Of a stretch of 64,000 nucleotides of DNA, positions 7,315 through 51,447 are shown in pieces. Positions within the stretch are counted from its first letter, which is position 1; each line of letters opens with the position of its first letter. Source of the DNA: a virus; IMG/VR virus record IMGVR_UViG_3300036939_000074. One strand, given 5' to 3'. The notes below the pieces were generated by a model. The model made no database searches and was not told the origin of the DNA. It saw only the letters and a program-made list of their open reading frames with translations. Both the position numbers and the translations under genes were made by a program.

Positions 7315-7329
7315 GCGCACTAAGTGCGC
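7315..7329. repeat. Dispersed palindrome GCGCACTAAGTGCGC, copy 1
   Basis: Exact match, intergenic; extends to tggcgcactaagtgcgcca. Confidence 0.9.
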
Positions 7330-7347
7330 CAACTTAAGCGCTGATAT

Positions 7348-7557
7348 TTAAGGCTCTACATCAACAGTGATCGCTTTATGGGAGTGTTGTGCATAAGTTA
7401 GATTGCCGGTGGTATCGATTTCGGTGATGGTGTTTAATTCTCCACACCACGGACAGTTCAGCTGCTGTCCCAATTCAAATTTGACACTACCCATTGACCA
7501 CCAGCGCTTACAGTGTTCACAGCCAAAATGATTGAGAATTTCCTGACTAAGTTTCAC
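7348..7557 (-). CDS. Small zinc-ribbon protein (paralog of 7554)
   Basis: CEHC...CPWC. Confidence 0.7.
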   Translation of the reverse strand: MKLSQEILNHFGCEHCKRWWSMGSVKFELGQQLNCPWCGELNTITEIDTTGNLTYAQHSHKAITVDVEP

Positions 7558-7766
7558 GGGCGCTTGATATGAATGACTCTCGCTTTACGTTTGCGTTGGA
7601 CGTAATTCACATTGCCCGTGGCATCAATTGCGGTGATAGTGTTTTCTCGCTTACAGGCTGGACAACAAATCACCTGTTGCGGCCTAAATTTGAGTTTGAC
7701 CATCGACCAGCGAAATTGGCAGTGATCGCAAGTAAAGCGACTCAGAAGTTGTTCCTCAAGTTTCAT
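7554..7766 (-). CDS. Small zinc-ribbon protein (paralog of 7348)
   Basis: CDHC...CPAC; shares WSM and IT-ID-TGN. Confidence 0.7.
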   Translation of the reverse strand: MKLEEQLLSRFTCDHCQFRWSMVKLKFRPQQVICCPACKRENTITAIDATGNVNYVQRKRKARVIHIKRP

Positions 7767-7873
7767 GGAAGTGCGCTAGTATAGCTGTATTAATTCTGAA
7801 TTTAGTAAACACTTTATATCAATTCCCATCGATAATTCGTTATTGCCAGTCCAATCTAGTATTGGGCTGGCTT

Positions 7874-8269
7874 TTACTTTTTAGGCCATAATATTTTTGC
7901 AGACCAATAAAGGGGCGAAAACTTGTCTTCTAGCGCCCGTTTGCCTCGGCTGGATTTTGTATTGGCAAATCGTTTGTAGAAGTTATCACGCCGATCTTTG
8001 TCTTCGTGAGTCGTAAAGTCGTCCATAGAGTCATCTCCGAAATGAATCAGTGCCACTTCGCCGTCATCAACGGCTAGAACCATCATCTTTTTTCCAGATT
8101 TATTACTTTTGACGGGTTCATCCGGAGTCCACCACTTCCCTAAATATTCAACTTTGCCATCTTTTTTGGGTAGGTCGGCTAGCTTGCGTTTGGCTTGGAT
8201 GAGTCCGGAGGCGGTTAATGCCAGATTAAAAGCGGCTAGTTCAATTTCAATTAGATTTGGGCTGGACAT
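7874..8269 (-). CDS. Leader-bearing small virus-type protein (DUF5754-like by recollection)
   Basis: KKMMV...HFGD..MDDFTTHEDKDRRDNF..RF...SPLYWS..ILW pattern; N-terminal LIEIELAAFNLAL...LIQA leader. Confidence 0.6.
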   Translation of the reverse strand: MSSPNLIEIELAAFNLALTASGLIQAKRKLADLPKKDGKVEYLGKWWTPDEPVKSNKSGKKMMVLAVDDGEVALIHFGDDSMDDFTTHEDKDRRDNFYKRFANTKSSRGKRALEDKFSPLYWSAKILWPKK

Positions 8270-8301
8270 GGGAAACGATTAGATGTTTCTTCTCGATCTT
8301 G

Positions 8302-8316
8302 GCGCACTAAGTGCGC
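8302..8316. repeat. Dispersed palindrome GCGCACTAAGTGCGC, copy 2
   Basis: Exact match, about 33 bp upstream of the 8269 start. Confidence 0.9.
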
Positions 8317-8365
8317 CATATGCAAAATCCCCTGATCGCCGCAAAGCAACCAGGGGGTTTTCGCA

Positions 8366-8686
8366 TTAATCGCCGTTCTGACGGCGATTCTGCCAGAGGT
8401 CTTCCTCTGAGGAGGGATCGTCTTCTACTAAACCGGAGTCAAAGATTTCACGATGCGCCTCTTCAAGCGCCTCTTTGTAGCTGACTAGCCAGTGGCTGGT
8501 CAGCTTGTCCAGCTCTATTAAAAGCTGGTAGATCTTCCTTAAGATTTGCCAGGGGGTGTTACGGACAAATCGGGAAGAGGTTGTGATTCGTTTAAGTTGC
8601 CTTACTGCTGAGCTGATGGCTTTCAGCTCTTCAATAACATGAGGCTCCTTTTTTACTTCTTTGATCCAGTTGTAAAGTTGTTGCAT
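8366..8686 (-). CDS. Hypothetical protein
   Basis: 106-aa helical ORF followed by a hairpin at about 8328-8363. Confidence 0.55.
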   Translation of the reverse strand: MQQLYNWIKEVKKEPHVIEELKAISSAVRQLKRITTSSRFVRNTPWQILRKIYQLLIELDKLTSHWLVSYKEALEEAHREIFDSGLVEDDPSSEEDLWQNRRQNGD

Positions 8687-8783
8687 ACAATCCCTCTGAT
8701 GTAAGTGGCGGGGGTTCCCGCAAACAAAGGGTAGTTGAGGGGTTTTACCCTATGTTTTCTGTCGCTCCCCCATCGCAACGTCA

Positions 8784-12273: not shown

Positions 12274-12299
12274 TACAATTGTCATGTTATTTCTAATAT

Positions 12300-13346
12300 T
12301 TACTCCAGAAACTTAGAAATTTGAGTGTCTATAACCTTATTGATATCCCCAGTGTTTAATTTACTTAATCTATCTTTGATGCGGTTGATTTTTTCAAGGG
12401 TCAGCTCAAGCCCTGACTTGACTTTTTTTTCAGCTTTGGCTTGAGTTTTCTTGGCTTTTGGTTTTTTCTTATCTGAATAAACTAATTTTTGACTTTGGGG
12501 TGCCTTTAAAACTTTGGGGATTTTCCCCGTATTCTCTGTAATGGTCTCCGGCTTTTTCGGTGGTTTTTTATCCGAACCGGGGGCGGTTAAGGTTGCCGGG
12601 ACTTTGGTACCAGTGGCATAGTCGATGTCTTCTTGGGTTTGCTTCAGGAGCCGGGAGATTTCATCACTAGAGTCTTCATTAGCCTCTAGTCGTGCGACTT
12701 GATAATCAGCAACAGCGGTAGCAATTCTTTCGGCTACTTTTTTCAGTCCCTCGTACTGGCCTTTGAGAAAACTTTTCTCTTCGGTAACAGCTGTTCGGGC
12801 TGTCTCTTTACCTTTATCAACAATGTCGCTGACATCCTTGATATCCTCCCCGGTGTCTTTCTCAGCCAGAAACTCTAAGGTGGAGAGCATCGCTCCGCTA
12901 ACCAGGGCAGCGCTATCTTCGAGAAGTTCTTTGCCGTTTTGGACGATTTGAGAAATTCTCTGACTCGGAGGGGTCTTGTCGTCCAATTTCCCAACTAGAT
13001 CGGAATTTTTGAAGGCTTTATCTAACTTACTGAGGACTTCCGATTCACTCTTGGTGACAGCTGCCGTTAGCTCTTCTTCTATGCGTGATTTTAGGGCTTT
13101 TCCTTCCGGAGTATCAGCCTTGACAGCCTTGACGGCTTCTAAAACCTTGCTGTAATCAGAGGATGAAGTAGCTGCCGGGGTGGTTCCGCCACCTCCAGGC
13201 GATGCAAATTGTCCACCGGGTCCACGATTAACCGTGACTGTGCGCCCGTCCACTTCGTGCGTAGTTTCAAAGCTGCCAGCCGCTTGGACTTTAATAGCTA
13301 GAGCCAGGGCGTCGGCTTCGACTTGAATAATGTGAACGTTGGGCAT
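12300..13346 (-). CDS. Leader-family protein 1 (charged coiled-coil C-terminus)
   Basis: N-term ADALALAIKVQAAGSFETTHEVDGRTVTVNRGPGGQFASP shared with 36812 and 43751. Confidence 0.75.
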   Translation of the reverse strand: MPNVHIIQVEADALALAIKVQAAGSFETTHEVDGRTVTVNRGPGGQFASPGGGGTTPAATSSSDYSKVLEAVKAVKADTPEGKALKSRIEEELTAAVTKSESEVLSKLDKAFKNSDLVGKLDDKTPPSQRISQIVQNGKELLEDSAALVSGAMLSTLEFLAEKDTGEDIKDVSDIVDKGKETARTAVTEEKSFLKGQYEGLKKVAERIATAVADYQVARLEANEDSSDEISRLLKQTQEDIDYATGTKVPATLTAPGSDKKPPKKPETITENTGKIPKVLKAPQSQKLVYSDKKKPKAKKTQAKAEKKVKSGLELTLEKINRIKDRLSKLNTGDINKVIDTQISKFLE

Positions 13347-13376: not shown

Positions 13377-13391
13377 GCGCACTAAGTGCGC
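13377..13391. repeat. Dispersed palindrome GCGCACTAAGTGCGC, copy 3
   Basis: Exact match, about 31 bp upstream of the 13346 start. Confidence 0.9.
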
Positions 13392-13527: not shown

Positions 13528-13803
13528 TTACTCAAATTCAGCCTGAATCGGCTCAAGGTAAGTAGAAAGAAAGTTGTAAGTAAAACCGAACAAATAGCCC
13601 TGAAGAGCGCCACCGATAATACCGGCGAAAAGATAGGTTTCCAAATAGTTCAGCAAAAATGCAAGGATGGTGTCGGATGTAAAACCGAGATTGCTAATCG
13701 TGATAATGGCTCCAATAGGGAAGGCCAAAGCCAGGAGGAAGGTATTGAAAGCCATACCGTACTTTGCTGCTAAACGGCAGTCAAAGGATTTAATATTTTT
13801 CAT
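13528..13803 (-). CDS. Two-helix membrane protein, family B copy 3
   Basis: Paralog; start MKNIK at 13803. Confidence 0.8.
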   Translation of the reverse strand: MKNIKSFDCRLAAKYGMAFNTFLLALAFPIGAIITISNLGFTSDTILAFLLNYLETYLFAGIIGGALQGYLFGFTYNFLSTYLEPIQAEFE

Positions 13804-13872
13804 GGTTGCAATGCTTGAAAATGAGGGGGTTGTTAAAAGCGGGTGAAGCAAGTTTTTTTGTTCAATACCTTG

Positions 13873-13901
13873 ATTGTACATTAGTTTTTCTAATGTGACA
13901 A
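13873..13901 (-). promoter_or_regulatory. sigma70-like promoter with palindromic spacer
   Basis: TTGTCA-cattagaaaaactaatg-TACAAT. Confidence 0.7.
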
Positions 13902-14191: not shown

Positions 14192-17100
14192 TCAAGAGAA
14201 AACATCTTCCAAACTGTTCACCACTTCAAGTAGTTGCAATTGAGATTGATGCCAAAGGATGAACCATTCAAAAGTTTTGCTGTGGCTGCACTCCAGGCAT
14301 TGCATTCTCAGAAGTCGCACGGCTTGAGCGAGGAAGATATCCGTAATCCAGGGAGGGGGGGGGAGGGTTTTAATCCACTCAATCACGGTTTCATCAACAC
14401 CTGTGTAGATGGCGGGGGTTGGCGCTTCAACAATGCCCCCTGGTTCCCACGCCTCTTGTTCATCCTCCTTGGAGTCTAACTGGCTTCGCAGCTCTAACTC
14501 TTTGGCGGTTAGGGCGCTGACTTCATCCCCTAGTTTGCTGACTTCGCTGGTGAGGTAGGTAATGCGTTCTGGTAGTAACCGTTGATGTTCTCGTTCAGCA
14601 TCGATCTTCTTGCTTAATCGGTCAACTTCGTACCCGTGACGAACCTCCCGGAGAGTGGTGCGGATGGCGTTGATGAACTTCTCACTAAATACCCAACTCA
14701 GCGAGACGGGATAAAAGATGCGGTAGGTTTGCTCGTTGTGGGTGTACGGAACTCCGGCGAGGTCAAGGCTCTCAATACTCTTACCACTGAAAAAGCTCAC
14801 CACAATGTCTAAGCCCGCAATTTGACCAATTTTTTTATGTTGGCAACGCTTACCGGCTTTGATGATGGCGTTGATTTTCCCCTGGAGGACAATATCCGCC
14901 TCTTGCACTTTGGTGGTGAGGGTTTTGCCGATTTGGATTGAGAAGGTGTCTCCGGTGAGGGAGCCGTGTTCTTTTACGGTTTCTTGGTCTACTTGGCTAG
15001 CTTTGTATTTGGCTTCTAGAACACCCAATACAGAGCCGCAACTCTCTGAGTAGTAGCGGTATTGGGAGAGGCGGGTTTGCTGTTCTTTGAAGGTGTGGTT
15101 TTTTTGCCGCAGCTGGTCTTTAACTTGGGCATATTCCAGCGCTGCTGTATTGCCGCTCATGATGGCGGCGGCCACGAGATAATACGAAGCGTCATCGCCG
15201 ATATCTTGGGTGCGACGGGATTCAAGCTTGCCGCTGGCATACTGGTGAGCCATGGCAGCGCGGTGCCGCACAAGATTGGCTTTCCAAGCGTCGAACCCAG
15301 GCTGATTGCCAGCCCCTAAAGTCCCGTAGTCAAAAGCCCAAACATCGTCGTGGGGGTTCCCCTGTCGGACAACTCGCCCTAATCTCTGCAATGGGGGTGA
15401 CCAATCTAAATCGAGGAGATGAGCGGCGATCGCTCCGCCATACCAAGTGTTTCGGACGCCTTGTGCATTCACACCCGTACCTCCGCGACGTGTCGAAGCG
15501 AGCAGCATCGCGGTTTCACCATTATTCATCTTATCAAACAATTTCTGTTTTGTCTTGGCATCGTACTCGTGGATAAAGGCGACTTCTGTTTCCGGAACTC
15601 CCAATGCAACCATGCAATCTCGGATGTACCGATAAACCGTGAATCGGTTATGAGGTTTGGGTACCCCACTGTTACAAAATATGAATTGAGTCGCCTTAGT
15701 TTCTCGCGTGGCCTGCCATACCCACCACGCATTGTGGATCAAGCGATGTAGCTTCGTATCGCACTCAACAGTTTCCACCTCTTTAACGAGCCGGGGGTCA
15801 ATGGACGCGGCTGAACCCATGCTGGTTAGGGTGAGAGGGTTATGGTTTGTCCAGTTGCCAGTTTTTGGGTGGACGTATTTCGGGGGCCTGCGCTTCTGCC
15901 ATGCTTTCAGCCAGTTTTTGATGTCTTCGTTGATGGCCGCTTGCTCGTCGGATAAGGGGGAGGTGATGGTGTAGCGGTGCAGTTGGGGGCGCTTGATTCC
16001 AACTTTTTCCGGGTCAGGGGCGAAGTCGGTAAAAGTGGCCGCTAAATCTAACATCTCGTCTTGGTTTTTGAAGCCACTGATTCGAGTTTTCTTCTTAATC
16101 CCACCCATACTCGTAAATTCTGGCTGGGTGGAAATTTCCCCAAAGTTACCAATGAAGCTATCGAAGTGGGCGTTACCCGTTTCTTCTATCTCATCAGGGG
16201 CAAAGAGCCTCAATAAGTTGAACATCTCACTAAAACTGACTTCTGGAAATAAGCCCGTTCCACCCCCAATTCTGCCACCGTTTCTCAACGTCCAATTGAA
16301 TTTCAATAGGGAGTTGAGAGAGCGTTGAGTGTCTGTATTGGTAATACCTGAAATGGTTCCGGCAATCTTACTGGGGTAGCGGATGTTCTTCAACATTTGA
16401 AGTTCATCAAAGCAGATGAGGGGCCTTTTTGCAATGTCTTCCCAGTTTAAAGCGATGGAATTGCGGCAATAATGACTAACGGCTTTTTCCAAAGAGCGTT
16501 TTAGGACTTTGATGGTTTTATCGCGCTCTTTTTCTCCCATTAGTTTAACGTATTCGTCGCGAGTTAGTCGTTGCTGTTTAGGCACAAATTTAACTTGCCC
16601 ACTATTACTCACTCGAATTGCCCCTTTATCCAACAAGTCATCCATGACTGGCATCATGGATTGGGGGTCATTCCCCGCGTCTTCAATCGCGCCAATGACT
16701 TCTAGGCGCTCAATTTCTTGGCGCAAGGAGTGGGCGTGAGCAAGCAGGTCTCCGTGGAGTAAAGACTCTTTTGTTGCATCAACTTCTTGCAAGTAACCTT
16801 CAATGACCGACAGTTCTTCAGAGATGTATTGAACCTTCGTCCGCCACCCAATGGGGATGCCATAGAAGGCAGTGTGAGCCAAGATGATGCAGTCATAATT
16901 TCCGGTTTGGCAGCGCCGTAATGTGGCGTTGCGAGTTTGTGCCCCCCCATCTTCGGCAATTAATAGTTTAGCCTTGGGATAAAGGGTTTTAAATTGCCCG
17001 ACAAACTGGGAGACGGTATCGTTGAGGACAGAGATAAATGCCTTGTCAACTAACCCTAATCGCTTGCATTCCATTGCAACGGCACAGTAAACAAAGGTTT

Positions 17101-27176: not shown

Positions 27177-27188
27177 AGTCGTGGTGTG

Positions 27189-27203
27189 GCGCACTAAGTG
27201 CGC
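27189..27203. repeat. Dispersed palindrome GCGCACTAAGTGCGC, copy 4
   Basis: Exact match between the 27176 start and the 27236 stop. Confidence 0.9.
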
Positions 27204-31849: not shown

Positions 31850-31878
31850 GCGCACTAAGTGCGCGAGACTAAGTGCGC
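31850..31878. repeat. Dispersed palindrome copy 5 plus a partial tandem copy
   Basis: gcgcactaagtgcgc-gag-actaagtgcgc between convergent genes. Confidence 0.9.
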
Positions 31879-36811: not shown

Positions 36812-37900
36812 ATGTGCGATTCAGAGATCATTCAAATCCATGCTGACGCCCTGGCGCTGGCGATTAAAATCCAGGCAGCTGGCAGCAACTTTGAAACGAC
36901 ACATGAGGTGGATGGCCGCAAAATTACCGTTACCCGTGGCCCTGGGGGACAGTTTGCCTCGTCTCCCGATAACTCGGGTGGTAGCAGTGATGCTGTTAAG
37001 ACTCAATCACAAAACTTCGGCGCTAGCGTGGCAAAAACGCTTGGATTGGATAAGGCCGCAGCGGCGATCGCTAAACTACCCAAAGATGCGAAAGCGGGGT
37101 TTGACAGAATTCTGACTGATAATCCTATCGTCCAAGACGTTTCCAATAAACTCGTTGGGGAAACTAAGGACGGGTTTGACGCCGGTAATAAGCTAGCCAA
37201 AGACCTTAAAGGCACTGACTGGAAACAAATCCCCAAAAAATTTACCGATGGGGTGGCAGCCTTAGCCGAAGATATCAAGAAGAACAAGCAGGATTACCTT
37301 GTAGGGCTAGCCCTAGCTGGGGCGATGACTTTTGGCGTTGCTAGTGCGCTGAGTGCTGGTACTTTAGCTCAAGCTCTCCCTGGCGTTATTGGCGCTGCCG
37401 TAGAAACGGGAGATCTTACCGCTGTCGGATTACACCTACTTCAGTTGTTCGGTAAAGGCATGTGGGCGGCAATAGTAGGGCTTATCGTTGTTCCCCTGAT
37501 GGGGCAGGTTGTTATTGCAAAGGCATTCGGTGTCGCGCCACCGGAGAAGACGCCTGAAGAGCAAAAAGTTGAGGAGGAGAAGGCCAAGAAGAAAGCTGAG
37601 AGGGCTGCCCGACTTGCTGAGGCGACCGCTAGAGCAGTGGCTAGAGAGCAGCAAGACCCCACGGAGAGAAAGCTTGGTTACATGGGGATTGACATCGACT
37701 CACTGAAAAAAGCCCAAGAAAAAGCCAGTGAACAAGTCGTACAACAGCTTAAGGAAGAGATAAAAAACGCGGAAGCGGCTTGGACGAGCTACATGGATTC
37801 GGTGGGAGAAGCTGTCCCTCCAGAAAAGGCAGAACAAATGCGGAAGGAATTAAAATTGCACGTCAATCAAATTAGAGAATTAATTAGACAGAAAGATTGA
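36812..37900 (+). CDS. Leader-family protein 2 (hydrophobic central segment, coiled-coil tail)
   Basis: ADALALAIKIQAAGSNFETTHEVDGRKITVTRGPGGQFASSP; Ala/Gly-rich hydrophobic helices. Confidence 0.75.
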   Translation: MCDSEIIQIHADALALAIKIQAAGSNFETTHEVDGRKITVTRGPGGQFASSPDNSGGSSDAVKTQSQNFGASVAKTLGLDKAAAAIAKLPKDAKAGFDRILTDNPIVQDVSNKLVGETKDGFDAGNKLAKDLKGTDWKQIPKKFTDGVAALAEDIKKNKQDYLVGLALAGAMTFGVASALSAGTLAQALPGVIGAAVETGDLTAVGLHLLQLFGKGMWAAIVGLIVVPLMGQVVIAKAFGVAPPEKTPEEQKVEEEKAKKKAERAARLAEATARAVAREQQDPTERKLGYMGIDIDSLKKAQEKASEQVVQQLKEEIKNAEAAWTSYMDSVGEAVPPEKAEQMRKELKLHVNQIRELIRQKD

Positions 37901-39352: not shown

Positions 39353-40427
39353 TTTTCTCTTGCAACACTTCCAGTAATGCTTGCCGCTCCACTTCACTCA
39401 ATCCCTCGGCATTAATTTTGCGGGCATTGGCAATTACGATGGGTTCCTCTTTCTGCTTTTTGGGTAAGAGGCGACTGACCAGTGTTTTTGCCTGGGTTAC
39501 AGACAAATGACGAGTCATTATCTCCGTTACGCATTGGCTTCGCATAGCGATCGCTTCTGCTTCCGTTTCCAGCGCTGGCACCTTAAGCCGTGCTACTTCT
39601 CTGGCGTGGGTGGTTGGCAAACCCTCGCGGATAGCTTGTTTCAAATCCTCTGGAAATTCCAGAATTTTGAAAGTCATCATGTTTATGCTTGCAGGGTTTA
39701 ACCGCAAACTCAGCAATGTGGCAATGATTTGCCTTTCTTCGGTTGAGTTCAGATCTAACTCTTCAAGTTTTGCCCGCTGCACAGCCAACGGCTGGGTAAT
39801 AAGTCCCACAAGAAGATCGTACTGCCCATTCCGCTTCAACCTTGTTAGCCCTGTATTCAGGGTTGTAGTGATTTGTTTGGTCTCTAAGCTGGTGACACTT
39901 TTAAGTTCCTTAATTAAGGCTTCGGCTACATCCAGTCCGTTCAAATTTTCCCGGTGCAAATTGGCGACAAGGACTTGCCGATGTAATTCCTTATCTGGTC
40001 GAGCAATGGTCACGGCAGCCAACGTACTTTTTTGGATCAATTGACAGGCACGCCAACGGCGCTCACCATCAAAAATTAGATAGCTTCCGTCTTCATTATC
40101 GATCACAATAATGGGCTGTTGCTGTCCATCCTCTTGCAAGGATAAAGCCAGTGCAAGTAGAGAGTCGTGAGAGAATGTTTGTCGAGGCTGGCTGGGGTTG
40201 GGGCGAATCTTCTCAATTTCAATTTCGGAGACACTACCCCTTGTTGCAGCAGCAAGAGCTTGGAGTTCCTCTAATTTTGACTTCATTTCAACGGAGTCAC
40301 CGCTTGAAGAGCGTAATTCCTCAATTTCTTGGGTAAGTTGAGTAATCTGAGACTCAAGTTGCATCACTTGAGTCGTTTCCCCAAAAACTTCCTCCACGTT
40401 AAACGAACTTTTCCTAGACTTAGGCAT
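39324..40427 (-). CDS. parB: ParB family partition protein
   Basis: IRPNPSQPRQTF, GQQQPIIV, IFDGERRWRA, ANLHRENL; likely start MPKS at 40427. Confidence 0.9.
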   Translation of the reverse strand: MPKSRKSSFNVEEVFGETTQVMQLESQITQLTQEIEELRSSSGDSVEMKSKLEELQALAAATRGSVSEIEIEKIRPNPSQPRQTFSHDSLLALALSLQEDGQQQPIIVIDNEDGSYLIFDGERRWRACQLIQKSTLAAVTIARPDKELHRQVLVANLHRENLNGLDVAEALIKELKSVTSLETKQITTTLNTGLTRLKRNGQYDLLVGLITQPLAVQRAKLEELDLNSTEERQIIATLLSLRLNPASINMMTFKILEFPEDLKQAIREGLPTTHAREVARLKVPALETEAEAIAMRSQCVTEIMTRHLSVTQAKTLVSRLLPKKQKEEPIVIANARKINAEGLSEVERQALLEVLQEKIKELEAPEK

Positions 40428-40965
40428 GGGTTTCAGCCGGAATGGATAAACGAATCTGCCCAAAAACATTGCCACCGCCCGGTTCAGGGGAATCTCGATA
40501 CAAATAGTCTCGGATGTCTCGTTCGTCGCTGTGACGACACCAGCGCCAGGTGCCACTACCGTAATAAAAGTGCTTTGACCAGGCTTCCATCAATTGATGA
40601 ATGGTTTGGAGTCGATAGTTTCTCAAGTACTGCTTGATTACGGGTTGCTCTGAAGTCCAGGAATAATGCGCGAGTGTTGGCGTGTGAATGAGTGGGTTAG
40701 ACACCAGGGCCTTCATTTCGTCCAAACTCGCTGACCAGCGCACGAGCCAATCTTCGGCCATCGCTGTTGGTTGTTTATTGGCGAGTATGAGTTGCTGCGA
40801 TTTATGGAGTTCCTCAAACTCCCTTTCGCACTGGTTAACCCGAGCGATCGCTTTTTCAAGCTTGGCCTTTACGGGTGGATAGATGGCGGCTCGGCAATAA
40901 TCGGGTTCATTCTCCTGCTGGGTAACCAGGAGGTTTTCGGGTGTGATGGAAAACTTTCTTCTCAT
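40420..40965 (-). CDS. Hypothetical coiled-coil protein between parA and parB
   Basis: Overlaps the parA stop (ATGA) and the parB start (ATGCCTAA). Confidence 0.6.
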   Translation of the reverse strand: MRRKFSITPENLLVTQQENEPDYCRAAIYPPVKAKLEKAIARVNQCEREFEELHKSQQLILANKQPTAMAEDWLVRWSASLDEMKALVSNPLIHTPTLAHYSWTSEQPVIKQYLRNYRLQTIHQLMEAWSKHFYYGSGTWRWCRHSDERDIRDYLYRDSPEPGGGNVFGQIRLSIPAETHA

Positions 40966-41753
40966 GATTCTAAAGCCTCAACAACTGAAACAATTTGCTC
41001 AAAATCAGCGATCGCCGGGTGCCCAGCTCGGTGGAGATGCAGGGGCAACCCCTTTGCGGAGGCATTCTTCAATTCCGATGTATAGCGAATCGGCGCAAAA
41101 CACTTGAGACCCATTCCCTCAATCACCGGAACCAGGTCTTGATTGGAATGGCGATGAATCGCAATTCGCGCATCGTAGCGGGATGGCACAACTCCAATGA
41201 TTTGAGGCGCAGGCTTGAGCCGTAAGCGACGATTGATGTCCATAATCCAGGTGATCAAGGCTGCGATCGCACTTAGCGACTTTGGCTCTAATTCACAAGG
41301 AATTAGTACATGAGTACTCGCTGCTAGTGCAGCCAGGGGCAAGGGTCCCAAGGTGGCGGGACAGTCAAAGATAATAAATGAGTGCGGGAGGGGATAATCA
41401 TTCAGGCGATCTTGTAGGAAATAAGCGCCACGTTCATGCAGTACGAGTTCGTGAGCCGCTCGCACGAGAGACGTGTTGCTCTGGAGTAGTTCTATCTTGC
41501 CGTGGAGCTGTTCTTCCCATACTGGCCGTAGAGGCCAATCTCCGGCGAAACTATCTTTGAAGACCTCTGCCATTGTGCCTTCTTCCCCTTTGGGGCAAGG
41601 CAATCCCGTGAACAGGGAGAGGGAGCCTTGAGGGTCTAAATCCAACAATCCAACCGAATGCCCTTTAATTCCCAAGCTGTACCCTAGATGGGTGGCGAGG
41701 GTTGTTTTTGCCGCTCCTCCCGCGTTGGAGAGGATAGATATGCGAGTGGCCAT
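40962..41753 (-). CDS. parA: ParA family partition ATPase
   Basis: SNAGGAAKTT deviant Walker A, DLDPQGSL, IIFDCPATLG; start MATR at 41753. Confidence 0.92.
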   Translation of the reverse strand: MATRISILSNAGGAAKTTLATHLGYSLGIKGHSVGLLDLDPQGSLSLFTGLPCPKGEEGTMAEVFKDSFAGDWPLRPVWEEQLHGKIELLQSNTSLVRAAHELVLHERGAYFLQDRLNDYPLPHSFIIFDCPATLGPLPLAALAASTHVLIPCELEPKSLSAIAALITWIMDINRRLRLKPAPQIIGVVPSRYDARIAIHRHSNQDLVPVIEGMGLKCFAPIRYTSELKNASAKGLPLHLHRAGHPAIADFEQIVSVVEALES

Positions 41754-41759
41754 AAAAAA

Positions 41760-41795
41760 ATGATGTTGTATAAAATCGATTTTATACAACATCAT
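41760..41795. promoter_or_regulatory. Perfect 36-bp palindrome just upstream of parA
   Basis: atgatgttgtataaaatcgattttatacaacatcat. Confidence 0.8.
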
Positions 41796-41813
41796 CACAA
41801 ATGCGCGAACATT

Positions 41814-43750: not shown

Positions 43751-45514
43751 TTATTGGTCAAGAGCATATAAGCCAAACAACAGATGGTCACGGTCTTGCT
43801 TGGCTTGCAGACTCAAAGATTGCCAACTGGTTAATGTCTCAGTTGCCGTCGAAATGATTTCAGAATTTCCCTCGTATAATTTAGCGCTATAGGGGCTTCT
43901 AAAATCTGATGGCCGAGCTTTTTCATAATCTCTATAAGCTGGATTGTTGGTCAGATATTTTAGTTGTACCTCTTCATTCGAGATTGCTCTATCTTTTGCG
44001 TAATTATGAGTTATTGCTGAATTATTTAGCTTAACTTCTAATACATGACCTAATTCGTGAAACATTACTGTCTTGGGGTCATGAGCAAAGCCCGTATGAA
44101 TAAAAGATTCTCCAGCTCCAGGTATATTAAAAAAATTGTCTTGATAACCTCTGTTTTGACCAATATCCTTCGTGGGGTCATCTGGTGCGACAAAACCCAC
44201 CCGCACATCTAATTCTTGCTTGGTCAATCTACCAAATAGTTGAGCAGCTTCCGTACAGTCTTGAACTCGCTGAACTACTTTTGGGTCTTCTGTTTCTAGA
44301 TGCTTCCCTGCTTTTTTAAGTAATAGAAACTCAATATATCTACTTTCAAACGGACTAAGTTGACGAATCTCAGATTCTGATTTTCCTTTATCGATCAACG
44401 AAATCACCGCTTGATACTCACGTTCTACTTTTTGTGAGTTTTTAAAATCCACTGATTCTAGTAATTGATCGATAGCAGCCCCGTAACGGAGTTCACTCTT
44501 AATAACCCCCTCGTGCCACCCAATCGAATCCTTGTCATCTTTAGATTTTTTGGGGTTTTGACGTAATGCCGTGAGTTCTAGAACCCGCTCCCTTAAAGCG
44601 TGTTTATTAAATGCTTCCCGGTTAGCCATTTGTCGATTAAGCGCTTGCCGCACAGCATCCGGGTCTATTTTTGATGTTTTAAGGGCTTCAGCCACTTTTT
44701 CGGCTAACTTAGAGCTAACTCCAAGACTCAAACTGATGGCTTTTTGAGTTGGAGTTTCCTCAGCGGCGGGAGTTTCCATCTCGTTAATTTGTTGCTCTAA
44801 CTCTTGGCTGATTTTTTTGAATCGATCGTCTTGTGTTCCCGTTTCGGCGAGCTTATCGAATAGAGCTTTTATCCGATTGGCTCCGTGGTACGCTCCGATG
44901 ACTCCTAAAGCCGCACTTCCGGCTACAAGTACCCTTAATCCTGCAAGCTCAGCTGGAGCTGAACTCAGAACTATTGCCCCTAAAACAGCGATCGCAGATT
45001 CTTCGGCAAGTGCTCCAGCAAATTTCGCTGCCGATAATGGGTCAATCGCCGCGCCCTTGGCTACATCTGGAAATTTTTTAACGGTTTGGGCGATGTCATT
45101 AGTAGCCCATTTCAATTTCATTTCCGATTGGGTTACGACATCAGGCAGGGAAGATGCAGCAGAACGATAAGCATCCCCAGCACCCTTGCCCAATAATTTT
45201 TCTAACTGCGACGCGAGATTGTTATTAAAGTCTGTAACGGGTTTGGATTGCAATGCACTCTTAAGTTTTGAGGCATTTTCGCTGATGACCTTATTAACTG
45301 AGTTCTGTAAATCCTCAACCTGACTGACGAAGTTATTCTTGGGTGATTCGGTTGTACCAGGGGATGCAAACTGCCCTCCAGGCCCCCGGGTCACCGTAAT
45401 ATCTTTGCCATCTCCAGTTTTGTGCTGCGTCTCAAAACTGCCGTTGTGTTTCTGGGCTTGCACCAGGAGCGCCAGCTTTAGAGCTTCTGCACATACTCGA
45501 ACCTGGTCACTCAT
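43751..45514 (-). CDS. Leader-family protein 3 with C-terminal HExxH zinc-metallopeptidase-like domain
   Basis: AEALKLALLVQAQ...FETQH...ITVTRGPGGQFASPG; VMFHELGHVLE; SPYSAKLYEG-SEIIS. Confidence 0.75.
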   Translation of the reverse strand: MSDQVRVCAEALKLALLVQAQKHNGSFETQHKTGDGKDITVTRGPGGQFASPGTTESPKNNFVSQVEDLQNSVNKVISENASKLKSALQSKPVTDFNNNLASQLEKLLGKGAGDAYRSAASSLPDVVTQSEMKLKWATNDIAQTVKKFPDVAKGAAIDPLSAAKFAGALAEESAIAVLGAIVLSSAPAELAGLRVLVAGSAALGVIGAYHGANRIKALFDKLAETGTQDDRFKKISQELEQQINEMETPAAEETPTQKAISLSLGVSSKLAEKVAEALKTSKIDPDAVRQALNRQMANREAFNKHALRERVLELTALRQNPKKSKDDKDSIGWHEGVIKSELRYGAAIDQLLESVDFKNSQKVEREYQAVISLIDKGKSESEIRQLSPFESRYIEFLLLKKAGKHLETEDPKVVQRVQDCTEAAQLFGRLTKQELDVRVGFVAPDDPTKDIGQNRGYQDNFFNIPGAGESFIHTGFAHDPKTVMFHELGHVLEVKLNNSAITHNYAKDRAISNEEVQLKYLTNNPAYRDYEKARPSDFRSPYSAKLYEGNSEIISTATETLTSWQSLSLQAKQDRDHLLFGLYALDQ

Positions 45515-45555: not shown

Positions 45556-45570
45556 GCGCACTAAGTGCGC
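45556..45570. repeat. Dispersed palindrome copy 6
   Basis: Extends to gtctcgcgcactaagtgcgcgagac (45551-45575); about 42 bp upstream of the 45514 start. Confidence 0.9.
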
Positions 45571-45582: not shown

Positions 45583-45939
45583 TTAACGAATTGCCCCTTC
45601 CGGTGGTGGCGGGTCTGGGAGCCGAAGCTTTGGCTCATCGTTTACTTTAATATTCCACGGTGAGGGAAATTGCTGTAGGACATATTCCACGTTGTTGAAA
45701 TCTGAGTAGCCCCACTTCCCCGACTTCAGGCCATCCATCAGTCTGCCATTGCTGCCAATTGCAGGTAGTCCGACATAGTAATAAATGAATTCGGTGACTT
45801 CCTTACTATCTTTATCCAAAAACAGCTCTATCTGAATTTGCGCTATCTGAGCCGTGGTTTCTAATTTGTCCCCTTGCATCGGGGTCAACGTAATTTCGCA
45901 AATTTTTTTTGAACCCAGTTTCACCGTGAAACCGCTCAT
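45583..45939 (-). CDS. Hypothetical protein
   Basis: 118-aa ORF with GAGGA upstream. Confidence 0.6.
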   Translation of the reverse strand: MSGFTVKLGSKKICEITLTPMQGDKLETTAQIAQIQIELFLDKDSKEVTEFIYYYVGLPAIGSNGRLMDGLKSGKWGYSDFNNVEYVLQQFPSPWNIKVNDEPKLRLPDPPPPEGAIR

Positions 45940-46967: not shown

Positions 46968-48137
46968 TTAAAGAAACCCCAATGTTTGCAGCGCTTTTTG
47001 GAGGTACTGCACATTAGAGGTGCTCTCCTTGGGTAGCACTTCGCAGACATACAAGGGATTGCCCATCGCCTTTAATCCGTGCCGCATCACAGAAGACTCT
47101 ATGGAGCCAAGCGGCTTAACATTGTGCATCCGAATCAGGACATTTAAAACACTCAGAATCCGCTCCGCATCTTCCTCTGTCCCTGACCCCTTGCATCCAA
47201 AATGCATCAGCCAGTCGGGGAATAGTTCAATTTCGTAAGCGTGAGTTATGGCATGAGGAACGACGGAGGGAGAGACTAATGCTTTCTTGCCCACAACGGC
47301 AATCTCACAAGCTTTTTTGATAGCCCAGAACATCGGCATTAACTGCATGGGCAGCTGTGACTCAATTGGAACATTTGAATAGACCCAAACTTTCTCATGT
47401 TTGTAATCGCTGCCAAACATAACAGCGCGAAGGGTCAACTCTTTTTGCCATTGAGGCAACACACAGGCTTTAAGCGCTGATGAACCCAATGACCGACGAT
47501 TGCTGTAACATTGCACCCTGTAGGGTGAACCCGAAGCAGAAGCAACAGACGCCGGCTTACCCGTGATTGCACAGACGGAACGTATCCCCTCGCCTCTTTT
47601 TGAGCGCTGTTTGGCATGAGTGTAGTTATTGAGTTCCTCCGTAAACGAGATATCTGCTGATATCTCTTTAGGTTTGGAGTTGAGATGGGGTTGAAGGTAA
47701 TCGGCCAGCTCAACCAATTTGGCTTTATCCAGCCCTTCGGCTTCCTCCACCTTGGCAAACAGCAGCCAGTAGCCCAATTTTAATCCGCCTGATTGAATTT
47801 CAAGTTCATCTGGGGATATCAGCGGGTACTTTTGGAGCAGCGCCTCTTCAAATACCTCTGCATTTGGGGCGAGGCTCCGCAGGAATATGGCAAAATCTGC
47901 GAAGCGATCGCACCAAATAGATGCGGGGATGCTTTGCCCTATCTTAGCTAAACGGGCTGGGGCGTAAGAGTTTTTGTAGGCCATCACTTTGGCAATGACC
48001 GACTCAATGACAGTTGTTAGGGGAAGTTCACAGAACGACTCAGGAGCTGTTAAGCCTTTCCCATGACGCTCAATCGCGTCTGAAATAACAATCGCTTGCT
48101 GTTGTTCGCTTAAAAATTCAGTTAGTAGGGCAAACAT
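46968..48137 (-). CDS. cas10d: Truncated Cas10d/Csc3 (type I-D large subunit) homolog lacking the HD domain
   Basis: Collinear motifs ERHGKGL, CDRFADF, EIQSGG...GYW, FTEELNNY..AK...CAIT, QCYSNR..LG...W..ELTLR, GKKALVSPSVVP match the middle of cyanobacterial Cas10d as I recall it. Confidence 0.78.
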   Translation of the reverse strand: MFALLTEFLSEQQQAIVISDAIERHGKGLTAPESFCELPLTTVIESVIAKVMAYKNSYAPARLAKIGQSIPASIWCDRFADFAIFLRSLAPNAEVFEEALLQKYPLISPDELEIQSGGLKLGYWLLFAKVEEAEGLDKAKLVELADYLQPHLNSKPKEISADISFTEELNNYTHAKQRSKRGEGIRSVCAITGKPASVASASGSPYRVQCYSNRRSLGSSALKACVLPQWQKELTLRAVMFGSDYKHEKVWVYSNVPIESQLPMQLMPMFWAIKKACEIAVVGKKALVSPSVVPHAITHAYEIELFPDWLMHFGCKGSGTEEDAERILSVLNVLIRMHNVKPLGSIESSVMRHGLKAMGNPLYVCEVLPKESTSNVQYLQKALQTLGFL

Positions 48138-49052: not shown

Positions 49053-49346
49053 CTTCCAGAACGCCCGTTATAGTCGGCGGCACTCGTTGAGAATTGGAAT
49101 CGCCCGTTAGGAGTCGGCGGCACTGCACAAAAATCAGAATAACATATTGCAATGCATTTTTTCTGTGCGCCTGTAAAGTCCTTACTGTGTAATGCTTGTG
49201 CTTGATTGAACCGGATTTTTGTGCGGTTGTTAATTCGTTTGAATAAAGCGCATAGCAAAAACCCTTGGGAGCAAAGTACCATCAAAATAGCAAAAACCCT
49301 TTGTAAGAAAGCTTTTGACCCTTGGGGGAGACAAAGAGGGCTTGAT

Positions 49347-50198
49347 TTAATAACCCCATTCGTCTTCTGGGTAACCTGTCGGTGGTTCCACATCGGTGAC
49401 GCCATTGCATATATCCGGATCTTCTTCCAATCCCCCACAAACTAAGTAAAGAGCTTTCATGAGTGGTATAGCTGCTCTTTCTTCCTGAGTTAGCGGCTGG
49501 GCTTTCCCCATCGCATTAGGGTCATAGTTAAGTTGGCCCTGAACAACAGCGATGTGAGAATGAAACCTCGCGACTTCACCTTCAATATCAAATTCATAGG
49601 CATAGACTTGATGAGTGGAAGATACTTCATAGTACTCAGGATTTTGCCACTCTCCTGTCATATCCCGCTCGAAGTGCAACGCATCCCAATCAATCCACGT
49701 CCTAGTTTTTTGATGGGCTAGCACGGCTGACGTGATTAGGGTTCTATTCTTTTTAATCCATTGGTCTTTTAAACTGTAAATGAGTGAAACGGTTTTCTGG
49801 TTGCCGTGTGAGGCAAATTTGTATTTAGGAAAGGATTTAGCGTATCGATTCAAGTATCGAATTAAGTGTAATAGTGCTTTGGCTTCAGAGGAAAACTCTT
49901 GGCTGTATTCTTTAAATTGGGTAACAGCGAGTTGAATCCTATTCCTCCTTTCCAGTTCTTGCTGTTCTATTGCCTGTTTCTTCCTTAATCGCTTTATTGC
50001 GTTGTAGCCCGGTATATCTTTCAGCCGCTTCACCCTGATAGCGTGATGCTCTTTTCGTAAACTCTCTATAAGAGGAATTGCCAGCTCTCTAGTCCCTGTC
50101 TTGATTTGAAGCAAAATGTTTAAATCTGTGGCGGTTTCATTGACTTCCATCAGTCTGACATAGCCATCGAAAAAACCAATGTATTTGGAGCGTTCCAT
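49347..50198 (-). CDS. Hypothetical protein
   Basis: 283-aa ORF. Confidence 0.65.
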   Translation of the reverse strand: MERSKYIGFFDGYVRLMEVNETATDLNILLQIKTGTRELAIPLIESLRKEHHAIRVKRLKDIPGYNAIKRLRKKQAIEQQELERRNRIQLAVTQFKEYSQEFSSEAKALLHLIRYLNRYAKSFPKYKFASHGNQKTVSLIYSLKDQWIKKNRTLITSAVLAHQKTRTWIDWDALHFERDMTGEWQNPEYYEVSSTHQVYAYEFDIEGEVARFHSHIAVVQGQLNYDPNAMGKAQPLTQEERAAIPLMKALYLVCGGLEEDPDICNGVTDVEPPTGYPEDEWGY

Positions 50199-50200
50199 TT

Positions 50201-50938
50201 TTAGTTACCGACCAACACTTCTTCTTTGTTGAGGGGGCAAGGCGCTTCTAGGTATGTTTTTAACCGGGTGTAAGCTGCATTAACTTCTGTAAACTTTGCA
50301 GCATTACCGCCTCGGTCGGGATGATGTTTGAGGGACATTCTTCGGTAAGCTGTTTTTAGCTCTGCGAGGGTGTACTGCTGCCGAGACAAGCCTAGAGTTT
50401 GGTAGTCGGCGTGCGCGCCCAGCCTTGGTGCTTGGTTCTTTTGATGATTGTGGTTGCTACTTCCTGATTTTTGGCTGTAATGATCGCCTTGGTGATTACT
50501 ACTTCCTGATTTTTGGTTATTTTTGCGCTTACTTCCGGGGGTTGCTGGCGGCTTTTTCCCCCAGTATGTGCGACTCTCCATAATTACCTTTTCCGTGGCG
50601 TCCGAGGGTGTTTTGCACCAACGAGTCCAAAGCCGCTTATCATCCAATGTCGGGTGCAGATTCCAGTGACTGATTTCCCCAACACGGATAATACATGTCC
50701 AATCACGACCAACACAAAAGATGAATCCGCGTCTCATCTTTTCTGGTTTGGTCGTGTCAAACACTTCATACAGATACTCAGGGGTTTTGGAGTAATTTGC
50801 CCAAAAGCGGGTTTTGATGTCGTTAACAGTTTCCTCATGGCAAGGATGCACAGGTTCACCATGAATTGCAATCAGCCGTATCTCAGCTCTGTAGCCTTGA
50901 CGGGCATAGTACATCGTTTCCTTCAAATTTTTTCTCAT
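50201..50938 (-). CDS. Protein with C-terminal DnaJ (J) domain
   Basis: YQTLGL...LKTAYRRMSLKHHPDRGG...F-EVNAAY--L. Confidence 0.85.
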   Translation of the reverse strand: MRKNLKETMYYARQGYRAEIRLIAIHGEPVHPCHEETVNDIKTRFWANYSKTPEYLYEVFDTTKPEKMRRGFIFCVGRDWTCIIRVGEISHWNLHPTLDDKRLWTRWCKTPSDATEKVIMESRTYWGKKPPATPGSKRKNNQKSGSSNHQGDHYSQKSGSSNHNHQKNQAPRLGAHADYQTLGLSRQQYTLAELKTAYRRMSLKHHPDRGGNAAKFTEVNAAYTRLKTYLEAPCPLNKEEVLVGN

Positions 50939-50940
50939 CT

Positions 50941-51312
50941 CTATCCCCGGCTTAACACAGACATGATGTACTGATTCAAGCTCACATTTTCCGCCCTGGC
51001 TTTTTCGGTCAGACGACGATGCAAACTTTTAGGTATCCGTACAAGCAACCTACCACTGTAGGTATCGTCGGTACTGGGTAAGGGAATGTCATCTCCATTT
51101 TCGTAGGCAGTCTCAACCCACAGCTGCCTTGCCTCATTGATGTTTGCGATCGCTTCATCTAACGTTTCAGCTTGGGTGAGGCATCCCTGTAGCTCCTTGA
51201 TTTCGACCACATACCCTGATTCCGGGTCGGGATAAAGCGTAATTGGGTATTTCACCTCCAAGTAATATGCCAATGGCTTTCTGCTGTCTTGGTTCATCTT
51301 TTTACGACTCAA
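50941..51312 (-). CDS. hicB: HicB family antitoxin (orphan)
   Basis: GYVVEIKELQGCLTQAETLDEAI...IPLP; YSGRLLVRIPKSLHRRL...ENVSLNQY RHH domain. Confidence 0.9.
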   Translation of the reverse strand: MSRKKMNQDSRKPLAYYLEVKYPITLYPDPESGYVVEIKELQGCLTQAETLDEAIANINEARQLWVETAYENGDDIPLPSTDDTYSGRLLVRIPKSLHRRLTEKARAENVSLNQYIMSVLSRG

Positions 51313-51331
51313 TGTTTTTCTCGTTGGTCAA

Positions 51332-51351
51332 TAGTATCGCATATGATACTA
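51332..51351. promoter_or_regulatory. Inverted repeat upstream of hicB (candidate operator)
   Basis: tagtatc-gcatat-gatacta. Confidence 0.5.
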
Positions 51352-51432
51352 CTTCCGGAATTATTTGCCGGAAAAATTGATGAACCAATAAGGTCAATTT
51401 TGGGAACCATTGGTTCCCGGTTAGGTCTGTTG

Positions 51433-51447
51433 GCGCACTAAGTGCGC
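51433..51447. repeat. Dispersed palindrome copy 7
   Basis: Extends to ttggcgcactaagtgcgccaa (51430-51450). Confidence 0.9.

Follow-up and report, generated by a model that had tools for sequence, protein, structure and literature searches.

A palindromic 15-mer, GCGCACTAAGTGCGC, was found in seven exact copies between the genes of a cyanobacterial phage-plasmid-like genome, and these copies are most likely docking sites for one regulatory protein. The best explanation, which we hold with slightly less than even confidence, is that they are putative DNA sites of a dimeric regulator and would serve as operators where an internal promoter is present and as roadblocks at the remaining places.

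An exact palindromic repeat between genes

The window, that is, the whole 64-kb stretch of DNA analysed, comes from a previously unseen cyanobacterial phage-plasmid-like genome. Its phage nature was indicated by a capsid protein match, and its replication protein (Rep gene 51522..54935) is CyRepA-like. As shown in Table 1, seven exact copies of the 15-mer were located on the plus strand, in agreement with the initial annotation. A search allowing up to two mismatches returned 14 matches, which are the same seven sites counted on both strands, and no copies with one to three mismatches were found in the window. In 100 dinucleotide shuffles of the window there were 0.06 matches on average and two at most, so that the earlier judgement that the repeat is not due to chance was borne out.

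Table 1. Copies of the 15-mer and neighbouring features in the window
Feature	Position	Strand	Description
Copy 1	7315..7329	-	Reads GCGCACTTAGTGCGC on the minus strand; palindrome of 19 bases (7313-7331); 18 nt past the stop of 7348..7557; 196 nt before the ATG at 7118
-10-like hexamer TAAAAT	7294..7299	-	15 nt downstream of copy 1
Near-consensus sigma-70-like promoter	7250-7221		Between copy 1 and the ATG at 7118
Copy 2	8302..8316	-	Palindrome of 19 bases (8300-8318); 12 nt downstream of the terminator stem 8356-8329; 7 nt past the AUUUU run; 32 nt before the ATG at 8269
Canonical intrinsic terminator	8329..8356	-	12-pair stem and U-run, directly upstream of copy 2
Copy 3	13377..13391	-	15 bases only; 136 nt past the stop of 13528..13881; 30 nt before the ATG of leader-family gene 12300..13346
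Copy 4	27189..27203	-	15 bases only; 32 nt past the stop of 27236..27805
Hexamer TATGCT	27172-27177		Begins 11 nt downstream of copy 4
Copy 5	31850..31864	-	In the gap between convergent 31436..31810 (+) and 31879..32832 (-)
Hexamer TAATGT	31832-31837		Begins 12 nt downstream of copy 5
Partial tandem copy	31865..31879	-	Last 11 bases of the motif at 31868-31878; overlaps the stop codon of 31879..32832
Copy 6	45556..45570	-	Palindrome of 25 bases (45551-45575), with TCTC/GAGA instead of TGG/CCA; 12 nt past the stop of 45583..45939; 41 nt before the ATG of leader-family gene 43751..45514
Hexamer TATGAT	45539-45544		Begins 11 nt downstream of copy 6
Copy 7	51433..51447	-	Palindrome of 21 bases (51430-51450); 74 nt past the stop of Rep gene 51522..54935; 120 nt before the HicB-like gene 50941..51312

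With its 7+1+7 bases the 15-mer is perfectly palindromic: GCGCACT and AGTGCGC enclose one central base. This base is A on the plus strand in 7/7 copies, giving a TAA loop on that strand. The copies had been described as all having the same orientation, with TAA on the plus strand, which is correct for all seven; because the palindrome is perfect, however, orientation here means the central base alone, and with free orientation such agreement would have a chance of 2 x (1/2)^7 = 1/64. The flanks had also been said often to extend the palindrome. This was true of four of the seven copies, in which the arms reach 9, 9, 12 and 10 bases, but not of the other three, whose arms are 7 bases long. Positions +/-1 and +/-2 outside the core showed symmetric partial conservation, and the extension comes as two distinct complementary sets, TGG/CCA and TCTC/GAGA. 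The partial tandem copy noted earlier beside copy 5 was also present, and in the RNA fold it forms one structure with copy 5. The plus-strand gene by copy 5 (31436..31810) is conserved in relatives. A possible variant, GCGCAC-CGAA-GTGCGC, was found at 62358..62373 on the plus strand, within the 3' end of 61348..62400 and 29 nt before the ATG at 62403. Its 6-base arms are those of the motif and its loop has 4 bases; the chance of one match of this type is about 0.02 by our estimate from hexamer counts, and its membership is uncertain.

On our gene map all seven copies lie in intergenic DNA, as the initial annotation had stated, although intergenic DNA makes up only 8.7% of the window (0.087^7 = about 4e-8). 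Two open reading frames bear on this count: 26676..27194 overlaps copy 4 through a GTG start inside the motif, the ATG at 27176 being the likelier start, and 51302..51628, which overlaps copy 7, was treated as not a gene on account of its coding score of -0.009. Copies were present in 6 of the 34 co-directional gaps and in one of the two convergent gaps. All five divergent intergenic regions were without the motif, which is not significant given the intergenic share (estimate 0.25). The copies all stand among minus-strand genes, and the plus-strand genes have no copy for contrast. A minus-strand gene ends 12-136 nt upstream of each copy, and this includes the copy in the convergent gap, after which no gene follows. 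A start codon lies 30, 32 or 41 nt past the motif in three copies and 12-41 nt past it in four. One gene family shares an N-terminal leader, with mutually unrelated C-terminal parts, and both clear minus-strand members, 12300..13346 and 43751..45514, are preceded by the motif, at 30 and 41 nt (hypergeometric estimate about 0.003). The structural operon 60854..57393 has no copies.

Among 401 other cyanobacterial genomes the motif was found in three, with at most two copies in each. Viral contigs gave only single matches (23 loci), and so did metagenome contigs (35 loci for the 17-mer). The motif is thus not a common cyanobacterial repeat and, within the set of genomes examined, is specific to this element.

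A candidate operator and roadblock site

Seven perfect copies, with none at one to three mismatches, fit sequence-specific recognition better than selection for structure only, and the 7-1-7 palindrome with its symmetric flank conservation has the form of a dimer site. In the mechanism proposed here, the 15-mer would be the invariant core of a palindromic DNA site of about 19 bp (T-S-GCGCACTWAGTGCGC-S-A), which a sequence-specific dimeric DNA-binding regulator of the phage-plasmid would bind. The sites stand at gene boundaries inside leftward (minus-strand) transcription units. Four of them are positioned as a -35 element would be, with a -10-like hexamer 11-15 bp downstream. Protein bound there would control an internal promoter, as a repressor on its operator or as an activator whose site replaces the -35 element. 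The remaining three sites would be barriers, with the bound dimer blocking the elongating RNA polymerase in the manner of the stoperators of mycobacteriophage L5, and a polymerase arriving from upstream would be blocked in this way at any of the seven. The exact copies, their intergenic placement and their geometry are observations, from which we infer protein binding, action at the DNA level and the effect on transcription.

A TAnnnT hexamer begins 11-15 nt downstream of four of the seven copies (binomial P 0.0025, with an offset window picked after looking), compared with a background of 0.097 per 5-position window in the intergenic DNA of this window. For the remaining copies (8302, 13377 and 51433) no -10-like hexamer is suitably spaced, which counts against this reading. 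Also at odds with it, the main promoters would be expected in divergent regions, and all five of these are without the motif. Family searches of the 54 unannotated proteins for HTH and RHH families, even at E 0.05, found none apart from HicB and ParB, and no candidate regulator emerged. Further observations sit poorly with a dimer site. The central base is constant although a symmetric site should be indifferent to it, the two different complementary flank sets look like selection for pairing, and the possible eighth hairpin has a 4-base loop that a rigid dimer site would not tolerate.

The initial annotation had listed late-activator or repressor sites among its candidates, with P1 late promoters as the model. 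A regulator site is still the best reading, but the P1 geometry does not fit. P1 late promoters (Lpa) have a -10 hexamer and an inverted repeat centred near -22, whereas here, in the copies with a -10-like hexamer, the centre of the motif falls at about -31 to -35. The C1 repressor sites of P1 are likewise regulator sites spread between the lytic genes of a plasmid-borne prophage; they are asymmetric 17-mers, in contrast to the seven palindromic copies here.

The L5 (Cluster A) stoperators are similar in being many copies of a short site across a phage genome, located in short intergenic spaces. They differ in that the site is an asymmetric 13-mer recognised by a monomer and is present more than twenty times, whereas here a perfect 7-1-7 palindrome occurs seven times in 64 kb and has its polarity in one base. 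PMC9283540 offers a precedent: the L5 repressor acts at sites found both within promoters and in short intergenic gaps, oriented in correlation with transcription, and silencing comes from a block to initiation as well as to elongation. A further precedent is given in PMC12642595, according to which Mfd contributes to the formation of RNA ends in Rho-less cyanobacteria, possibly where polymerases have stalled.

A hairpin in RNA as the main rival

The initial annotation had also proposed RNA-processing hairpins, and this candidate is still alive: the pairing flanks and the constant strand speak for it and the full 15/15 identity against it. A hairpin in RNA, read by a protein at cistron boundaries, is the main rival to a DNA site, although we consider it rather unlikely. 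The hairpin GCGCAC-UUA-GUGCGC, with a stem of 6-11 bp, would lie in leftward polycistronic transcripts and mark the boundaries of cistrons. It may act as an exonuclease barrier after processing, stabilising the upstream or downstream cistron, or its sequence may be recognised by an RNA-binding protein, for example a translational activator of the Mu Com type, a Cas6-like endonuclease or an antitermination/termination factor.

The position of every copy downstream of a minus-strand gene, with the convergent-gap copy included, is consistent with a hairpin in the transcript, as is the short distance to the start codon in three copies and at the 62358 variant. The constant central base gives the element a strand, and the flank extensions are complementary while differing in sequence. 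Furthermore, the minimum-energy fold has the motif self-paired in 5/7 contexts (z-scores between -1.0 and -5.5). In two other cyanobacterial genomes the 15-mer forms the stem-loop of three bidirectional intrinsic terminators flanked by A- and T-runs, and across bacteria 33 of 143 occurrences (about a quarter) look like terminators. Copy 1 is preceded, at 18 nt, by the end of two tandem zinc-ribbon genes (69-70 aa) whose Com-like match is weak (E 0.005, below the curated cut-off).

Structure alone, however, needs no 15/15 identity that includes the loop. Compensatory variants would be expected, and none were found apart from the doubtful 62358 site. Copy 2 stands just past a canonical terminator, so a role in stabilising the 3' end of the message before it is unlikely, and transcription from upstream should reach it poorly. 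Copy 1 is upstream of a near-consensus promoter and not in the leader of the gene that follows. RNase III requires about two helical turns, and the stem is too short for it. In the one cyanobacterium for which they have been mapped (PMC12642595), non-canonical 3' ends are broadly without strong structure, which also counts against a hairpin.

With their GC-rich hairpin and stem of 6-11 bp, the copies resemble intrinsic terminators, but none of the seven has a T-run. A canonical intrinsic terminator was ruled out, since a U-tract or T-run follows 0/7 copies and terminator scans called none of them. Canonical terminators are present elsewhere on the element, at 46573-46554 and 23092-23138 in addition to that upstream of copy 2.

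Partition sites, mobile palindromes and weaker readings

A set of dispersed centromeres or loading sites, at which the element's ParB would act in partition and perhaps in long-range silencing, is an improbable reading of the copies. The initial annotation had taken the open reading frame at 31879 for ParB, but no ParB-family match was found there, and the real ParB is 39324..40556 (PF02195, E 3.2e-20; TIGR00180, 95.8 bits against a cut-off of 58.45). In favour, the element encodes ParA as well as ParB with no repeat array alongside, and the motif, found in identical form at several separate places, is short and perfectly palindromic around an odd central base. Short perfect palindromes in identical dispersed copies, on a plasmid encoding a ParB-family protein, are also known from N15 (scattered centromeres) and from RK2 (OB sites of KorB), and the OB site has an odd central base. 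Against this reading, the score places the protein with the chromosomal-type ParB/Spo0J/Noc proteins, and the motif is unlike parS: no parS match was obtained at up to three mismatches, and only CAC/GTG is common to both. Two other palindromes on the element are preferable to the motif as centromere or operator candidates, namely GTTTCAC-C-GTGAAAC at 45918-45932, whose arms are identical to parS half-sites, and a 36-bp perfect palindrome at the start of parA (41760-41795). ParB homologues on sequenced cyanobacterial plasmids were at most 42% identical among the 15 matches listed, all under 60%. The dispersed parS centromeres suggested earlier were therefore not upheld, as the motif is unlike parS and the other palindromes fit better.

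Hardly more credible, and if anything slightly less so, is a REP-like or miniature mobile palindrome that came from the host genome and landed in intergenic DNA, any function being incidental. The copies are strictly intergenic, hairpin-forming and identical, and the 1.5-copy arrangement at 31850 resembles a nested or slipped insertion. Small palindromic repeats are also carried by a Nostoc plasmid that is otherwise unrelated and shares only the Rep gene with the element. Against mobility, no target-site duplications were seen at the copies, degenerate copies with one to three mismatches were lacking, no transposase or RAYT family was detected among the 75 proteins of the window, and the motif is rare in the 401 cyanobacterial genomes. 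In addition, small dispersed repeats of cyanobacteria have 21-27 bases, and the motif, with 15-19 bases, is shorter. REP/BIME elements and intercistronic stabiliser hairpins are comparable as GC-rich extragenic hairpins shortly past stop codons inside operons. REP elements, however, are imperfect, occur in hundreds per chromosome, are found in either orientation and have RAYT transposases associated with them, whereas here seven perfect copies stand on one element, with no spectrum of diverged copies (REPINs included in this comparison).

A hairpin in single-stranded DNA is very improbable, whether as a promoter of the N4 early type for a phage polymerase or as a priming signal for the primase-type Rep; either would account for the single orientation. 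N4 hairpin promoters have a stem of 5-7 bp and a 3-base loop with a purine at its centre on the template strand. The motif has a 6-bp stem and the 3-base loop TAA, whose middle base on the template (plus) strand is a purine. Start codons follow four copies at 12-41 nt, and the primase/helicase-type Rep gene adjoins copy 7. These features are opposed by the failure to detect a single-subunit RNA polymerase in the 64-kb window (about 4.5 kb of the 68,509-base contig lies outside it), by one copy that faces into convergent genes and by the structural operon being without a copy.

Recombination sites at cassette boundaries, which the initial annotation had listed last, did not hold up, as family searches found no recombinase (integrase or resolvase family) among the proteins of the window. 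Site-specific recombination sites (attC, res and similar) were discarded for this reason and because the arms are 1 base apart rather than separated by a 6-8 bp spacer. Short identical boundary sequences for recombinational shuffling of gene cassettes between related phages are barely credible, since 15-19 bp is very short for homologous exchange and the breakpoints visible against related contigs (loose ends 7390 and 7534) are not at the motif, although the copies do stand at gene borders by lineage-specific, paralogue-rich genes, three of them at the 5' ends of leader-family genes with unrelated C-terminal parts, and the PeSL cassettes of T4-type phages provide an analogue.

A seven-copy palindrome in intergenic DNA

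As the table shows, an exact search of the window found seven plus-strand copies of the 15-mer GCGCACTAAGTGCGC, at the places reported in the initial annotation. The search of 100 dinucleotide shuffles gave a mean of 0.06 matches, which bears out the claim that the repeat is beyond chance. Allowing up to two mismatches added only the same seven sites on the opposite strand, and a scan with up to four mismatches found no copy in the window with one to three. The sole near relative was the partial tandem copy beside 31850, where the last 11 bases of the motif occur again at 31868-31878. The motif is a perfect palindrome, GCGCACT/AGTGCGC, with a single central base between the arms, so the common orientation noted initially comes down to one base. 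That base was A on the plus strand in all seven copies, with a chance of 1 in 64 if orientation were free; the polarity stands to this extent, and the arms carry none. The flanks often lengthen the palindrome, as had been said: it was extended to 19-25 bases in four of the seven copies, and the remaining three consisted of 15 bases only.

Features of the window: motif copies (by plus-strand start) and recognisable genes
Feature	Coordinates	Past upstream stop (nt)	To next start (nt)	Palindrome (bases); flank pairing	Context or description
Motif copy	7315	18	196	19; TGG/CCA	Near-consensus promoter 7250-7221 between motif and gene
Motif copy	8302	49	32	19; TGG/CCA	Directly after canonical terminator 8356-8329
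Motif copy	13377	136	30	15	Ahead of leader-family gene 12300..13346
Motif copy	27189	32	12	15	Second ATG at 72 nt
Motif copy	31850	14	no next start	15	Two plus-strand genes faced
Motif copy	45556	12	41	25; TCTC/GAGA	Ahead of leader-family gene 43751..45514
Motif copy	51433	74	120	21; TGG/CCA	After Rep gene
DarB-like methylase-helicase	14192..19591				
ParA	40962..41798				Pair with ParB 39324..40556
Rep (replication protein)	51522..54935				1137-aa Toprim/helicase, 58% identical to a Nostoc plasmid protein
Capsid protein	57393..58607				404 aa; phage major capsid proteins in the closest ESM Atlas clusters, feature score 0.98
Other recognisable genes					HicB-like antitoxin, lone DndE-like protein, histidine kinase

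With 74 likely genes mapped, 8.7% of the window was intergenic, and all seven copies fell within this part, confirming that the motif is intergenic. It was found in 6 of 34 co-directional gaps, 1 of 2 convergent gaps and 0 of 5 divergent gaps. Nearly all genes of the window are minus-strand genes, and one of these lay upstream of every copy; read on that strand, the motif is GCGCACTTAGTGCGC. The nearer of the plus-strand genes faced at copy 31850 is taken as real because its homologues are conserved. The leftward operon next after this copy has its own near-consensus promoter at 30835-30807.

The motif was located 30-41 nt ahead of the ATG of both clear minus-strand members of the leader family, and the same was true of a doubtful member (7874..8269). 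The fourth member (plus strand, 36812..37900) had no motif ahead of it. Proteins of this family share a leader of about 50 N-terminal residues, including RGPGGQFASPG, fused to unrelated C-terminal parts, and one member, of 587 aa, has an HExxH motif. Metagenomes were the only source of homologues of the family. The family was absent from the 401 cyanobacterial genomes searched, and a metagenome scan with the leader alignment returned no relative.

A GGGAACC-AT(T)-GGTTCCC palindrome occurs twice: the copy at 14046-14071 follows the DarB-like gene and, with its A- and T-runs, resembles a bidirectional terminator, and the copy at 51402-51418 is 14 nt from motif copy 51433. Two tandem paralogous zinc-ribbon ORFs of 69-70 aa (7348..7766) end 18 nt ahead of copy 7315. 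They matched the Mu Com zinc ribbon and TIGR04104 weakly, with scores under the curated thresholds, and the second ORF had a coding score near zero.

Promoter and terminator signals

No T-run followed any of the seven copies, and terminator scans of the window called none of them; canonical terminators are present elsewhere on the element, the virus genome to which the window belongs. With a U-tract at 0 of 7 copies, a canonical terminator was rejected for the motif. A TAnnnT hexamer (TATGAT, TATGCT, TAATGT, TAAAAT) started 11-15 nt downstream in four of the seven copies, which places the centre of the motif at about -31 to -35, the position of a -35 element. The rate of TAnnnT per five-position window was 0.097 in the window's intergenic DNA, giving P = 0.0025 for four of seven at an offset that was picked after inspection of the data.

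The best single reading of the motif, put forward tentatively and somewhat short of probable, is a DNA site for a dimeric regulator. Four copies at the -35 place of candidate promoters, one copy after a canonical terminator and the lack of a U-tract together make this reading the best. The seven perfect copies with no near-variants suggest that a protein recognizes the sequence itself and not the fold alone, and the 7-1-7 arms, flanked on each side by two bases that are partly and symmetrically conserved, have the form of a dimer site. At the candidate internal promoters the motif would act as an operator, and it would also be a roadblock to transcription from upstream. The closest documented precedent is the set of repressor sites of mycobacteriophage L5, which lie in promoters and short intergenic spaces and at which elongation is stopped (PMC9283540). 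The motif would not be a strict L5 stoperator, since it is palindromic and the L5 sites are asymmetric. Termination by a roadblock is plausible in a Rho-less host; in Rho-less cyanobacteria, Mfd contributes to RNA end formation (PMC12642595). No candidate binding protein was found among the proteins of the window.

Among known systems, the regulator sites that temperate phages and phage-plasmids carry in dispersed copies come closest to the motif. It does not pass as an intrinsic terminator, a parS site or a recombination core, and with its centre at about -31 to -35 it misses the geometry of P1 late promoters, an analogue given in the initial annotation, in which the inverted repeat is centred near -22.

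A second kind of palindrome, ACATTAGT-N3-ACTAATGT, was found at 12250-12268 and 13878-13896, where it overlaps the near-consensus promoters (12273-12245 and 13901-13873) of small genes that are paralogues. It looks like a classical local operator pair, placed unlike the 15-mer.

Alternative readings of the motif

The main rival, which we regard as rather doubtful, is an RNA hairpin at cistron boundaries that would either block exonucleases or be recognised by an RNA-binding protein. Several facts favour it: every copy follows a gene, the convergent-gap copy 31850 included, the strand of the central base is constant, and the two kinds of flank extension are each complementary and unlike in sequence. 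In five of the seven contexts, the minimum-energy fold also had the motif paired with itself. Furthermore, a possible eighth hairpin at 62358-62373 (plus strand, GCGCAC-CGAA-GTGCGC) has arms identical to those of the motif around a 4-base loop, with a chance of about 0.02; it lies inside the 3' end of the plus-strand gene 61348..62400, 29 nt ahead of the next ATG. However, a role in structure alone needs no total identity, loop included, and copy 8302 sits behind a terminator. Geometry and the all-or-none conservation are the basis for choosing between action on DNA and action on RNA.

It is unlikely that the hairpin, having no U-tract, is a signal at which a phage factor would end, process or restart transcripts where gene modules meet, or that the copies are N4-like hairpin promoters. 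Such a factor would provide punctuation of long operons in a Rho-less host. Either version would account for the one-strand copies, the co-variation of the flanks and the copy in the convergent gap.

A ParB centromere or KorB-like site is quite improbable. The ParB of the element is of the chromosomal type and the motif is unlike parS, which weakens the dispersed parS centromere proposed earlier. Moreover, the element carries other palindromes that could serve. The one at 45918-45932, GTTTCAC-C-GTGAAAC, has canonical parS half-sites as arms with one extra central base, and falls within the opening codons of ORF 45583..45939, next to a divergent gap; it is a candidate centromere for this ParB. 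The other, at 41760-41795, is a 36-bp perfect palindrome with 18-base arms that overlaps the annotated parA start. It probably serves as the par operator; parA itself may begin further downstream.

A host mobile mini-palindrome has little probability, a single-stranded hairpin promoter or priming site still less, and a recombination boundary least, each being without an expected companion feature. A recombination site was rejected, as the motif fails as a recombination core. Iterons were rejected because the copies are not clustered, and a restriction or methylation target because the placement of the motif is too selective.

The invariant seven-copy motif is the clearest handle on gene control in this element, which is almost without recognisable regulators, and it could be used as bait for its putative regulator. 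If the motif acts at the level of RNA or termination, it bears on the question of how cyanobacterial transcripts end: cyanobacteria lack Rho, and among their operon ends only a minority are accounted for by canonical terminators (PMC12642595). Should the copies be no more than a set of ordinary operators, they would add one more case to a familiar theme, in hosts where it is new.

The motif elsewhere and the nature of the element

Outside the window, the 15-mer gave 23 single matches in viral contigs and at least 120 loci in genome contigs, among them several copies in an unrelated Ruminococcaceae genome as a repeat of its own. About a quarter of the occurrences examined (33 of 143) were terminator-like. 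The 17-mer gave 35 single matches in metagenome contigs. None of the 15-mer and 17-mer matches examined resembled the window. In two cyanobacterial genomes other than the element, the 15-mer formed the stem-loop of three bidirectional terminators with flanking A- and T-runs. When 401 cyanobacterial genomes were sampled, three carried the 15-mer and none had more than two copies. The motif is thus strongly enriched on the element and, on the evidence of these genomes, is no general repeat of cyanobacteria. No paper containing the 15-mer, read in either direction, was found in the literature.

The window contains 33 copies of the cyanobacterial HIP1 octamer. Public runs matching the window were four DNA runs, all biocrust or soil metagenomes, one of which may be the source sample, and no RNA run; contigs of these four yielded relatives in short fragments only. 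When 24 kb of the window was compared by megablast with collections of phages and plasmids, nothing matched. Searches of viral contigs with the leader protein, Rep and the 620-aa and 587-aa proteins found no related loci, and a search with the 124-aa family found one locus with only that gene in common. The majority of the 75 ORFs had no family match.

The element is best read as a phage-plasmid, a novel phage of cyanobacteria whose replication and partition genes are of plasmid type, because it encodes a capsid protein, a possible prohead protease, a CyRepA-like Rep and ParA/ParB. We infer a life as a plasmid prophage. To our knowledge, phage-plasmids of filamentous soil-crust cyanobacteria are essentially undescribed. 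The best structural match of the capsid protein had a TM-score of 0.71, with the SU10 capsid family in 26% of the members of the cluster, and the adjoining 620-aa protein pointed, less strongly, to prohead proteases. Neither a terminase nor a portal was recognised in the window. Rep is more distantly akin to proteins annotated as CyRepA1-family plasmid replication proteins.

The Nostoc sp. C052 plasmid pC052_F (223 kb) carries a distant version of the capsid gene beside genes annotated as portal and tape measure. Its phage-like module (39118-80137) has capsid, scaffold/protease-like and 1014-aa proteins in common with the window and adjoins a tape-measure gene annotated as about 24.5 kb; no dispersed palindrome was found within the 41 kb examined. 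The Nostoc sp. UHCC 0870 plasmid NZ_CP091920.1 has only the Rep gene in common with the window, and has small palindromic repeats of its own, GTCCCGCCGACGGGAC in four copies and TTCCGAAACTTCGGAA in three.

A 389-aa ORF at 46968..48137 matched part of Cas10d/Csc3 weakly (E 3.6e-7, 28.6 bits against a cut-off of 60), and no other cas genes were recognised in the window. Many tandem coding repeats, of 39 and 69 nt, and tandem families of paralogues, with three members, were present at 5288-5482, 23802-24012, 11451-13823 and 32532-33911.
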